Source: Heptranchias perlo (taxonomy: Eukaryota). From it: 64,000 nt of DNA. The translations under genes were made by a program, and so were the position numbers. Below are positions 39,137 to 59,415 of the stretch, piece by piece. Position 1 is the first letter of the stretch. Each line of letters opens with the position of its first letter. The stretch is taken from the NCBI RefSeq assembly GCF_035084215.1, contig NC_090345.1, positions 3,906,001 to 3,970,000 on the forward strand. Direction: 5' to 3'. Below the pieces are notes generated by a model, which had not been told where the DNA came from, made no database searches, and worked only from the letters and a program-made list of their open reading frames with translations.

Positions 39137-39450
39137 GGGCAGTGTAGATTAGTGGTTCTGGTACTGGCCCAGCAGCCCAAAGGTCGTGAGTTCAAATCCC
39201 ACCATGGCCAGTTGTGAAATTTGGATTCAACAAATCTGGAAAAACCGTAGAAGCTGCCAGATTGTTGTAAAAAGCCAAGCAGTTCACTGATGTCCTTCAG
39301 GGAAGGGAACCTGCCTCCTCCTACCCGGCCAGTCATTCAGATGTAAAGATACAAAGGAAAGAAGTCCCTTCTCCTACCTTCTCAGGGCAACTGGGGATGG
39401 GTCATAAATGGGCAGCTTCACTCACACCACGAGAGCAAATTATAAGAAAA
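39137..39450 (+). mobile_element. Short tRNA-SINE sharing head and tail with the 16090-19410 element
   Basis: A/B boxes, GTTCACTGATGTCCTTCAGGGAAGGGAACCTGCC body, then CTTCTCAGGGCAACTGGGGATGGGTCATAAATG tail. Confidence 0.8.
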
Positions 39451-40565
39451 ACAAATGGCCCTCGTTCCTGGTGCTGGTGCAGAATTGCTGCCACATTTTG
39501 CGACATAACAGCAGTCCCTTCCTTCGAAGTGATTCATTGTCTGACACGCTGAGTGGTTCTAACAGTGCGAATGGGTGCTGTATAAATATTTATTGCCACG
39601 TTTGTCTTTAGCTCCTGTTTATTGTCATTTCTTTGTTCAGTTCGTGCCTTAAATTAAAAACTTGCAATTATATCGCGCCATTCACGACCTCAGCTTGTCC
39701 CAAAGCACTTCACAGCCAACAAAGTACTTTTCTGAAGCAGAGTCACTGTTGGAATGTAGGAAAATGTACCGATCCCTGCTACAAAACAGGTACCACTGAG
39801 AAAAACAAACCAGCTCAGAATCCTAGGGTTTTAACTGAACTTGGTAGGTCACTCGGGTTTTGTGCAGATGGCCGCAGGGTTAAAAGCTGACATGTAACAG
39901 AGACGTGCACAGGGCTGTAGATTCCCCCCGCTCCTCAGGGCTAACTGTGATTGGCAGGTCCTGCCGAGCGAGCCCACACATGCACAGCTGCACCCCCCCC
40001 CCAGCAATAGTTACGGGAACAGCGAGCAGCTCCTGGGTCCCCAAGGAGGGCCGAACCGGAGGAATGCCCCTCCATCAGGGGGAGGGGGTCCAGTCTGTCT
40101 CCCCCGCTTCACTGTGCAGCATAAATAGGGAATGGTCCTCCTGTCCTGGATTGGGGGCAGCGAGCACCAGCTTCAGTTCACAAATCAATCAGGAGGCCCG
40201 ACAGTTGCCAGTTTGAGGGGAGCAAAGCCCATTGTTCAGTGATAGGATTACTCACCGCAACAACTGCAGCCCTATCCCGGCTCTCAGGAGCTGAGAAAGG
40301 GATTAACAGGATTATACTGTCTATCTGTATGTCACACGGATTAAATAGATTTGACTGAAACTGTCATGATTCCTTTGGCCGCCTCACAACGTAGTTACAA
40401 TCAATGGCTTTACTACAAAAGCCCTGCATTAATGTAGTGCTCCTCACAGAGGTGAACATTTTGGAGCCTTTTACAGCAAGAGGAGGCGAGAAAAATTAAA
40501 AAACACGATTGGGGAGGCAGGTTTTAAGAAGCTTCTGATGGATGGGAGAGAGGTCATGAGGCAGG

Positions 40566-42645
40566 GGAGAGGGGGATGAGCAGAAATCCAGTGTCGGAGG
40601 AGTGGAGAGGGGGATAAACAGTAATCCAGTGTCGGAGGAGTGGAGAGGGGGATGAGCAGAAATCCAGTGTCGGAGGAGTGGAGAGGGGGATAAACAGTAA
40701 TCCAGTGTCGGAGGAGTGGAGAGGGGGATGAGCAGAAATCCAGTGTCGGAGGAGTGGAGAGGGGGATGAGCAGAAATCCAGTGTCGGAGGAGTGGAGAGG
40801 GGGATAAACAGTAATCCAGTGTCGGAGGAGTGGAGAGGGGGATGAGCAGAAATCCAGTGTCGGAGGAGTGGAGAGGGGGATGAGCAGAAATCCAGTGTCG
40901 GAGGAGTGGAGAGGGGGATAAACAGTAATCCAGTGTCGGAGGAGTGGAGAGGGGGATGAACAGTAATCCAGTGTCGGAGGAGTGGAGAGGGGGATAAACA
41001 GTAATCCAGTGTCGGAGGAGTGGAGAGGGGGATGAACAGTAATCCAGTGTCGGAGGAGTGGAGAGGGGGATGAACAGTATTCCAGTGTCGGAGGAGTGGA
41101 GAGGGGGATGAGCAGAAATCCAGTGTCGGAGGAGTGGAGAGGGGGATGAACAGTAATCCAGTGTCGGAGGTGTGGAGAGGGGGATCAACAGTAATCCAGT
41201 GTCGGAGGAGTGGAGAGGGGAATGAACAGTAATTCAGTGTCAGAGGAGTGGAGAGGGGGATCAACAGTAATCCAGTGTCGGAGGTGTGGAGAGGGGGATC
41301 AACAGTAATCCAGTGTCGGAGGAGTGGAGAGGGGGATGAACAGTAATCCAGTGTCAGAGGAGTGGAGAGGGGGATGAACAGTAATCCAGTGTCGGAAGAG
41401 TGGAGAGGGGGATGAACAGTAATCCAGTGTCGGAAGAGTGGAGAGGGGGATGAACAGTAATTCAGTGTCGGAGGAGTGGGAGAGGGGATTGAGCAGAAAT
41501 CCAGTGTCGGAGGAGTGGGAGAGGGGGATGAGCAGTAATTCAGTGTCGGAGGAGTGGAGAGGGGGATGAACAGTAATTCAGTGTCGGAGGAGTGGGAGAG
41601 GGGATTGAGCAGAAATCCAGTGTCGGAGTGTGGAGAGGGGGATGAACAGTAATCCAGTGTCGGAGGAGTGGGAGAGGGGGATGAACAGTAATTCAGTGTC
41701 GGAGGAGTGGAGAGGGGGATGAGCAGTAATCCAGTGTCGGAGGAGTGGGAGAGGGGATTGAGCAGAAATCCAGTGTCGGAGGTGTGGAGAGGGGGATGAA
41801 CAGTAATCCAGTGTCGGAGGAGTGGGAGAGGGGGATGAACAGTAATTCAGTGTCGGAGGAGTGGGAGAGGGGGATGAACAGTAATTCAGTGTCGGAGGTG
41901 TGGAGAGGGGGATGAACAGTAATCCAGTGTCGGAGGAGTGGAGAGGGGGATGAACAGTAATTCAGTGTCAGAGGAGTGGAGAGGGGATGAACAGTAATTC
42001 AGTGTCGGAGGAGTGGAGAGGGGGATGAACAATAATTCAGTGTCGGAGGAGTGGAGAGGGGGATGAACAGTAATTCAGTGTCAGAGGAGTGGAGAGGGGA
42101 TGAACAGTAATTCAGTGTCGGAGGAGTGGAGAGGGGGATGAACAGTAATTCAGTGTCAGAGGAGTGGAGAGGGGATGAACAGTAATTCAGTGTCGGAGGA
42201 GTGGAGAGGGGGATGAACAGTAATTCAGTGTCAGAGGAGTGGAGAGGGGGATGAACAGTAATTCAGTGTCGGAGGAGTGGAGAGGGGGATGAACAGTAAT
42301 TCAGTGTCGGAGGAGTGGAGAGGGGATGAACAGTAATTCAGTGTCGGAGGAGTGGAGAGGGGGATGAACAGTAATTCAATGTCAGAGGAGTGGAGAGGGG
42401 GATGAACAGTAATTCAGTGTCAGAGGAGTGGAGAGGGGATGAACAGTAATCCAGTGTCGGAGGAGTGGAGAGGGGGATGAACAGTAATCCAGTGTCGGAG
42501 GAGTGGAGAGGGGGATGAACAGTAATTCAGTGTCGGAGGTGTGGAGAGGGGGATGAACAGTAATCCAGTGTCGGAGGAGTGGAGAGGGGATGAACAGTAA
42601 TTCAGTGTCAGAGGAATGGGAGAGGGGAATGAGCAGAAATCAAGT
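40566..42645. repeat. 38-bp purine-rich minisatellite (about 55 units)
   Basis: Unit CCAGTGTCGGAGGAGTGGAGAGGGGGATGAACAGTAAT with variants. Confidence 0.97.
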
Positions 42646-42683
42646 GCCAGTCATTATCGATGATTCTGATCTGTGTTCTCCAG

Positions 42684-58429: not shown

Positions 58430-58622
58430 CTGTTCTTCTGAAAGTTCCTTACTAGTCTCTGGTTTAATATACTTCTCCCGCATAGCAGGTATCCAGGAGA
58501 CTCTACACTTTGTACAAAATGGTTTCACATCCACAGTCCCAAGGGCATAACCACAAATGCTGCCCTCATCCTCTAACACGAAGCAATAATCCAGGCTCAG
58601 CGTCAGAAGACCTCCCACCAAA
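58430..58622 (-). CDS. OGA: OGA exon (HAT-like domain)
   Basis: [54 protein letters not shown]; cag/gtactc. Confidence 0.92.
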
Positions 58623-59157
58623 CTGCAAACACAACAAAAATAACACATTACACTAAAAAAACACAGGTACAGAGCTGAAACAAACATTAAACTATACTGA
58701 AGTTCTCCTTTTACCATAAGCCACAGAACAAGCACCCAGCGTAAAGGTACAGAAACATTTTTAAATATTCTCTATCCTGGCGACTCCAACTCTTGCTGGG
58801 GTGCAGTTCCACAGGGACAGGCAACTCTCTGGTACCTTGCCCACTTAGTCTAGACAGTTAATGTCAGCAGTCTGTTTGACTGCGGTGCTTATTGTAACAG
58901 CCGAAACAAAGCCAGTCCTCACCTGGCACCCTTACACATACACTTTCCAGCACAGAGTCACTGGATAATAATGAGCAGGAATCCTGCATGATTTATCCTT
59001 GTTATAGCCAGGGAAACTGAGGCCAATTGTAGCAACCCTACTGCCACTTAGGCCAGCTAATTAAACTAAAGCTTTTTATATTAATTTTTTTGTGGGAAGT
59101 AGAGTTTCCTCAGCAAGTTTCCTCTACAATACCACATAATACTGTAGATTTGGCTCA

Positions 59158-59415
59158 AGGGTAAAGTAGCCTAGTGGTTTTATAACTGGACTAGTAACCC
59201 AGAAGTCACGAGTTCAAATCCTACCATGAAACTGAATTCAAAAATCTGGTAATTTGTGGGATAGTACAAGAAAACGACCATGAAAACTGCTAACTGGTTC
59301 ACTAATGTCCTGCAGGGAAAGGAACCTGCCACCCCTCCCTGGTCTGGTCTACTATTAACTCCAGTCCCAATCTACAAGGTTAGCTCAGGGGAATTGGGGA
59401 TTGGCAATAAATACA
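59158..59415 (+). mobile_element. Second short partner SINE
   Basis: TAGCCTAGTGG, GAGTTCAAATCC, CTGGTTCACTAATGTCC body and GGGATTGGCAATAAAT tail. Confidence 0.78.

Follow-up and report, generated by a model that had tools for sequence, protein, structure and literature searches.

Short repeats joined from the two ends of a tRNA-headed Zenon LINE in Heptranchias perlo: probable birth of SINEs by repeated internal deletion

The birth of short interspersed elements (SINEs) is usually pictured as a chimera event, in which an RNA head is added to parts of a long interspersed element (LINE). A 64-kb window of the 3.25-Gb Heptranchias perlo genome (assembly GCF_035084215.1, contig NC_090345.1, positions 3,906,001 to 3,970,000), which spans a DNA polymerase lambda gene, raises the question of how short repeats come to share the tRNA-like head, the body and the 3' tail with a LINE. 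An initial annotation of this DNA offered two answers: the short repeats are internal-deletion derivatives of a tRNA-headed autonomous element, or a SINE captured the second open reading frame (ORF) of its partner. It regarded the long and short elements as one autonomous/non-autonomous pair that RNA polymerase III (Pol III) transcribes. The analysis described here indicates that the short repeats are the 5' and 3' ends of a Zenon LINE joined together, most likely through repeated internal deletion, and that this LINE carries a head with A and B boxes and is itself likely to be transcribed by Pol III.

The pieces of the short type in the window are listed below; nucleotide (nt) positions such as 318 and 3261 follow the numbering of an intact natural copy, L061.

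39137..39450, + strand: short element of the oldest lineage (A), decayed, within an intron of DNA polymerase lambda; a tRNA-like head and the Zenon leader, which stops at about nt 350-365, are followed by the Zenon 3' end from about nt 3233 (junction placed by eye)
39145-39155 and 39190-39198, + strand: A box (1 mismatch) and B box of the short element at 39137
59158..59415, + strand: short element of lineage A, decayed, of the fixed-junction family (nt 318 joined to nt 3261), which has lost a short stretch immediately 5' of the junction
59167-59177 and 59212-59220, + strand: A box (0 mismatches) and B box of the short element at 59158
46900..46970, - strand: body-only fragment (nt 189-271 of the long element), headless and tailless

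Both full short elements share head, body and tail with the long element, as the initial annotation had claimed, with alignment scores two to four times those of the best shuffle. When aligned with nt 1-304 of the long element, the element at 39137-39450 is identical at 176 of 224 columns (score 130, where 300 shuffles reach at most 42); its tail is identical at 67 of 90 (65 versus 28). The corresponding values for 59158-59415 are 163 of 203 for the 5' end (126 versus 37) and 26 of 29 for the tail (41 versus 24). The likeness is not confined to the boxes and the tail, which the annotation had named as the finding that would speak against its view, because the body without the tRNA head aligns far above shuffles in both elements (73/91, score 93 versus 36; 102/129, score 98 versus 35). 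The fragment that the annotation had placed at about 46895-46975 on the minus strand belongs to the group by its body, being identical to the long element at 62 of 68 positions; it has no A or B box, and its tail score of 21 lies within that of shuffles (up to 34). The two full short elements are 75% identical to each other (179/240), are old and carry small deletions, and no clear target-site duplication (TSD) was found around either of them. A profile of head and body marks exactly four places in the window, namely the two short elements, the body-only fragment and the long element, the 59158 copy having belonged to its training set. The short elements have the traits of SINE2 elements, namely a tRNA-like head with A and B boxes, a short and non-coding sequence and a tail shared with a LINE. 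Their body is presumably unlike the V and CORE domains.

The long element and the other pieces of its family in the window are as follows.

16092..19410, - strand: full-length young Zenon LINE with tRNA-like head and poly(A), flanked by a 5-bp TSD (19411-19415 / 16087-16091); dead, with a short deletion near 18960 and a stop codon at 16586-16588
19406-19396 and 19342-19334, - strand: A box and B box of the long element, their spacing widened by a 20-nt duplication
19063..19320, - strand: leader/body common to the short elements
16166..19003, - strand: single APE endonuclease and reverse transcriptase (RT) frame, with no in-frame ATG 5' of the endonuclease domain and no ORF1
19101..19110, - strand: 5' arm of an inverted repeat, in the leader
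16158..16167, - strand: 3' arm of the inverted repeat, in the tail, with a length of 10 bp at this locus; also the point where the tail common to the short elements begins
21683..22669, + strand: old piece of the same Zenon family, 5'-truncated and internally deleted, about 70% identical to the young copy
1732..2137, + strand: 5'-truncated 3' piece of the same family, 87.5% identical
21249..21476, - strand: 5'-truncated 3' piece of the same family, 82% identical

The long element sits inside a canonical CR1, where it is bounded by the duplication AATCT (5 bp), and the empty-site joint runs from 16086 to 19411 with 5 letters shared. Its frame contains the Pfam domains RVT_1 and Exo_endo_phos, and its nearest full-length protein matches are 33-40% identical; the protein matches that bear names are shark and ray models. 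Judged by sequence, it is the Zenon LINE already described from sharks and rays, which belongs to the CR1 group. Stuart et al. 2026 (PMC13343379) describe poly(A) Zenons without ORF1 in five elasmobranchs (SquAca, CarCar, RhiTyp, ScyCan and HypSab Zenon), which resemble the present element in their length of about 3.3 kb, their single APE-RT frame, the absence of ORF1 and the poly(A) tail. The supplement of that paper holds exact motif matches, and by eye seven of its consensus rows agree with head and body over their first 400 nt. The four parts, head, leader, ORF and tail, travel as one 3.3-kb unit. In a search with head and ORF start, 38 of 40 scored places (of 719 candidates) span the junction at 90-100% identity, and all 20 copies fetched in full run from head through ORF to tail over 3289-3367 nt. 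These young full copies have a mean pairwise identity of 97.4%. A 973-residue open frame starts from nt 350 in four of the 20, and its first methionine is residue 249 in three. The 5' start is fixed at GGGT in 19 of 30 copies with unrelated flanks. Copies of the family carry a poly(A) tail, and TSD-like matches at 20 long copies are 0-5 nt, which is at chance level, compared with 5 bp at the long copy of the window. Each of the 150 matches scored, out of 77,584 candidates, shows 100% identity across 187 residues. A sample of 60 stretches, each 10 kb long and placed at round coordinates, contains 26,715 bases of the family in 600,000 (about 4.5%); its ten clusters bearing head or body divide into 3 long copies, 5 short ones that have both ends and 2 that have the head only. 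Elsewhere, a public shark aldo-keto reductase gene model includes a piece of the Zenon ORF as an exon, which is likely to be either exonisation or an annotation error.

The relation between long and short copies was followed in trees of head and body built from 59 rows (4 dropped for low cover) and from 67 rows, with groups named before the tree was seen. The young B group comprises 16 long and 5 short copies (support 99/95). The older C layer contains long and short copies in an order that the tree does not separate. The oldest group, A (support 99/99), unites both short copies of the window with the ORF-bearing members L342 and L324. A clade of all long copies is rejected by the approximately unbiased test (p=0.00023), and so is a clade of the B and C short copies (p=0.00033). 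The short copies keep ORF ends of differing length, with 5' breaks at about 300-400 and 3' restarts at 3149-3266, and kilobase-scale intermediate deletions are present in L254, L261, L262, L269, L273 and L324. Because the short copies retain such varying bits of the ORF ends, repeated internal deletion is the best reading of their origin. The 30 loci of lineage C comprise 20 short ones, whose tails begin between 3174 and 3261, 3 unclassified ones and 7 that run into the ORF; 5 of these 7 have large internal gaps, and L279 was placed among the 7 by eye. A tight leader-tail pattern has 12 genome matches, six of which are 88-94% like the young leader and show five different junctions.

In lineage A, the junction 318/3261 with CTC as microhomology occurs in 12 of 29 similarity matches, none of which is an ORF-bearing copy; a search aimed at longer forms gave 14 short copies, 2 with ORF and 8 unclassified (n=24). 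Genome-wide, this junction recurs in 66 exact 24-nt matches on many contigs, with 0 for the control. The 318/3261 form was thus amplified as a SINE family, to which the element at 59158 belongs. At 39137 the head is of the lineage-A type, but the junction is longer and found in that copy alone. In three other organisms, contigs span every one of the 30 bins into which the element was divided; of the 15 joints listed from them, beyond which there are 11,295 more, 12 link 19070-19076 to 16145-16198, from leader end to tail. Contigs from RNA-labelled runs, which may stem from DNA, show the presence of the sequence only. Sequence comparison supports recurrent SINE birth, with independent short forms in at least three lineages. 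The single pair of the initial annotation therefore gives way to many independent short forms. Internal deletion, the first of its two options, agrees with the varying ORF-end remnants and the shared lineages, and capture of ORF2 by a SINE does not explain the short copies.

Several points speak against so simple a history. The tree relies on about 300 noisy columns and has 43-48 open branches, most of the inner ones, and head swapping alone could also interleave long and short copies. The pattern searches pre-select the junction type. Old copies have small deletions throughout, so that the junctions may scatter in part because of erosion at a later time. Splicing was considered as the source of the joints and set aside, since the breakpoints scatter and the fixed junction has, by eye, no GT-AG ends.

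The next question is which polymerase reads the long element. The young long copy has a perfect A box at +9 and a perfect B box at +73. Its coding strand (3310 nt) contains no run of four T (T4), against 20 A4, 12 C4 and 6 G4, and T4 is missing from 17 of the 20 full copies, the other three having one private run each. Over bins of falling identity, the observed/expected ratio of T4 is 0.05, 0.03, 0.21, 0.17 and 0.57, whereas canonical CR1 in the same DNA gives 1.2-2.2. At most 2 of about 50 Zenon copies share a T4 site, and these sites are private; CR1 sites are inherited and present in up to 28 of 32 copies. The 44 relatives from metagenomes contain 2-39 T4 runs each. Boxes and T-run avoidance together suggest, on balance, that Pol III transcribes the long element through to its end. 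These two features agree with the Pol III assignment of the initial annotation.

Other observations tell against a Pol III transcript of full length. The young copies retain TCTTT, a weak terminator, at nt 565; for rodent B2 this sequence is described as a minimal signal of Pol III termination (PMC8466645). The T4 deficit of a single master is modest (0 versus 2.0-3.7 expected, P 0.014-0.10 depending on the control), and the copies are not independent. The coding strand is T-poor (20%), and the oldest pieces reach only 0.57 of the expected T4, which post-insertion decay may explain. The 3' ends of 79 family copies are bimodal, 49 having a single T before the A tail and 17 having T4-T6 directly before the A run. 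Like the present family, B2, Dip and Ves carry AATAAA close to their 3' end as well as a T-run ahead of the A tail, and because T-elongation in B2-type SINEs follows genomic tail shortening (PMC8466645), the T-run is no proof of a terminator. It is conceivable, if rather unlikely, that the short copies have the same deletion origin while the long element is transcribed by RNA polymerase II (Pol II), from its leader or by host read-through, with the head as a passenger that functions as a Pol III promoter only in the short copies. LINEs are regarded as products of Pol II (PMC5786205), Zenons without a head replicate as well as yield deletion derivatives (PMC6740152), and TCTTT and the modest single-sequence significance of the T4 deficit fit such a passenger. 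However, the 5' start is fixed and SINE-like, 8 nt 5' of the A box, the boxes are kept in the seven shark and ray consensus sequences of PMC13343379, and T4 and T3 runs are depleted in this Zenon family only.

The origin of the head bears on whether the LINE or a SINE came first. The anticodon loop of the long element is CT-AGT-AA, and the best match for 4 of 5 heads among three tRNA types fetched from the genome is Thr(TGT). The head is thus likely to derive from tRNA-Thr, as far as these three types and the loop AGT indicate. Rfam recognizes a tRNA above its cut-off in one of 11 loci (29.9 bits), and three others score below it. For the young long-element head Rfam returns tRNA only, at 18.7 bits, below the cut-off, with no internal ribosome entry site or ribozyme family at E up to 10, and ARAGORN finds no tRNA over the window. 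The metagenome relatives (80 loci, 28-41% protein identity) show a weak A/B box pair in 3 of the 41 with a 5' flank, where 1.8 are expected, and ARAGORN with default settings finds no tRNA in these 41 flanks. The same head opens the seven published shark and ray Zenon consensus sequences, and by eye the hagfish and coelacanth rows lack it; the main text of PMC13343379, in its available portions, makes no mention of tRNA, Pol III or internal deletion. Because the invertebrate relatives are without it, the head was gained at least once. On the stem of sharks and rays a Zenon must at some time have acquired it, an event akin to the ORF2 capture of the initial annotation, with an older SINE as a possible donor.

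Such a SINE, if independent, could have played a larger part: through repeated template switching it would have passed its head and body on to the LINE, and the short copies would not be deletion products. SINE modules are often exchanged (PMC5786205, PMC5499810), most of the copies classified in lineage A are short (14 of 24, with 2 bearing an ORF), and the headless state of the invertebrate relatives is compatible with a donor. This origin is nevertheless improbable, as the short copies retain more or fewer of the codons with which the ORF itself begins and ends, the intermediate kilobase deletions exist, and young short copies show young-LINE letters at both ends. Least probable is that the short copies are long insertions that lost their middle later in the genome without amplification: most lineage-C junctions are copy-specific and microhomology deletions are compatible with DNA repair, but the breakpoints pile up at both ends rather than at random, and one junction in 66 exact matches on many contigs refutes such loss for the fixed-junction family, although some copies, 39137 among them, may have arisen in this way.

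Under repeated internal deletion, the preferred reading, deletions would arise during or after reverse transcription; short microhomologies (CTC, CTCA) would assist them, as might a pairing between leader and tail. Because the parent LINE already begins with a tRNA-type promoter, likely read by Pol III, a single deletion would be enough for a complete SINE. Pol III would read the entire long element, and the protein would be made without AUG. The shortened RNA, which would retain promoter and tail, would then be copied in trans by this protein, as in other SINE-LINE pairs (PMC5786205). Mapping of junctions and microhomology, which the initial annotation had proposed as a check, yielded the fixed junction 318/3261 with CTC and, for private deletions in young copies, 2.1 nt of microhomology against 0.7 nt by chance (n=11).

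The breakpoints cluster at the leader end and the tail start, beside the inverted repeat of 10-11 bp. The arms, at 308-318 and 3260-3270, pair over 11 bp in 14 of 20 young copies and over at least 10 bp in 17 of 20, and the fixed junction 318/3261 joins them exactly. The leader end pairs best with the 3' end, which takes ranks 1 and 2 of 143 windows. There is also much to set against the helix. The reverse pairing test ranked 14th, older lineages have two mismatches, and no compensatory pair swap was found in the helix. About 1% of random window pairs (32 of about 3000) are equally stable, and 7 of the 11 leader-tail joints listed appear without the 5' arm. A role of the leader-tail helix in deletion is accordingly no better than tentative. 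Local folds of head, body and tail are no better than shuffles (z -0.3 to -1.1). The fold of the whole 385-nt leader (z -3.6) was discounted as a structure signal, as it is due in part to AT-rich palindromes. Taken as a whole, the picture of a 3.3-kb Zenon messenger made by Pol III, translated without cap or AUG and looped by leader-tail pairing, in which a single RT skip yields a complete SINE whose body is the LINE leader and such births recur, has somewhat less than an even chance of being right in all its parts.

Parts of this route have precedents. Persaeus SIDE, derived from lepidopteran Zenon (Wang et al. 2019, PMC6740152), likewise joins Zenon 5' and 3' ends, has several origins and shows microhomology at the breaks. 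In contrast to the shark product with its full tRNA-SINE anatomy, Persaeus as described there lacks both homology to tRNA and a Pol III promoter. Bov-tA, AfroSINE and CoeSINE4 (Kojima 2018, PMC5786205) also have a body from the 5' region of their partner LINE together with the LINE 3' tail. In the Bov-tA type, however, the head is added to an RTE or Vingi that has already undergone deletion, as the second of two steps, whereas the autonomous element of the shark is already headed. SacSINE1, with a Deu domain and an L2 tail (PMC5499810), and HE1/HER1 (PMC3747384) are shark tRNA SINEs with LINE-derived tails. Unlike the present short elements, they are described as having only the tail in common with their LINE, HE1 being set apart by description. 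By eye, the short-element body has no match among the Deu (including SacSINE1), Meta and UCON3 domains in the supplement alignments of PMC7245038. Zenon deletion derivatives without a tRNA head, such as Persaeus, and LINE-bodied SINEs from RTE or Vingi that received their head later are thus known from the published accounts, and what appears new is a LINE whose own tRNA head would turn its deletion products into complete SINEs. No LINE of this kind was found in the available portions of the literature, an entry in Repbase, Dfam or SINEBase being possible, and six element motifs searched as text in papers gave no match.

The origin of SINE bodies has been termed enigmatic (PMC5786205). Here, parent and products stand side by side in three age layers of one genome, which suggests a one-step route that is datable and testable. 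If it is true that Pol III makes the coding RNA, the element would be a natural vertebrate Pol III messenger, of a family as abundant as the genome sample indicates, and many intact Zenon copies are usable in assays.

The remainder of the window contains further features. The exon at 37499-37672 matches DNA polymerase lambda in the PDB (E 2e-30). A 127-bp piece comprising a polymerase lambda exon and its acceptor site is duplicated on the plus strand (37712-37838 versus 38629-38755, 94% identical); the extra copy lies upstream of the complete exon, breaks off and would bring in a stop if spliced in. Just 5' of the first polymerase lambda exon seen, a direct repeat of 497 bp (30185-30681 / 31636-32132) is 100% identical, being either an assembly artefact or a recent duplication. 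A second abundant tRNA SINE occupies 27161-27616, 14880-15216, 34383-34793, 42956-43386 and 47424-47865; its body resembles a Deu domain by eye, so that it is likely to be SacSINE1. Many tRNA-Cys genes occur in tandem units of about 2.35 kb along one contig (loci L347-L376). A 67-bp unit forms four dispersed arrays (2785-3366, 11710-12431, 20740-21034 and 43589-44154) with units up to 100% identical, which by sequence are a minisatellite that appears mobile or spreading. Further minisatellites lie at 4868-5631 (45 bp), 35927-36409 (30 bp), 38057-38390 (43 bp) and 40558-42646 (38 bp), and the 30-bp array lies within a CR1 piece and translates as a repeated RT motif.

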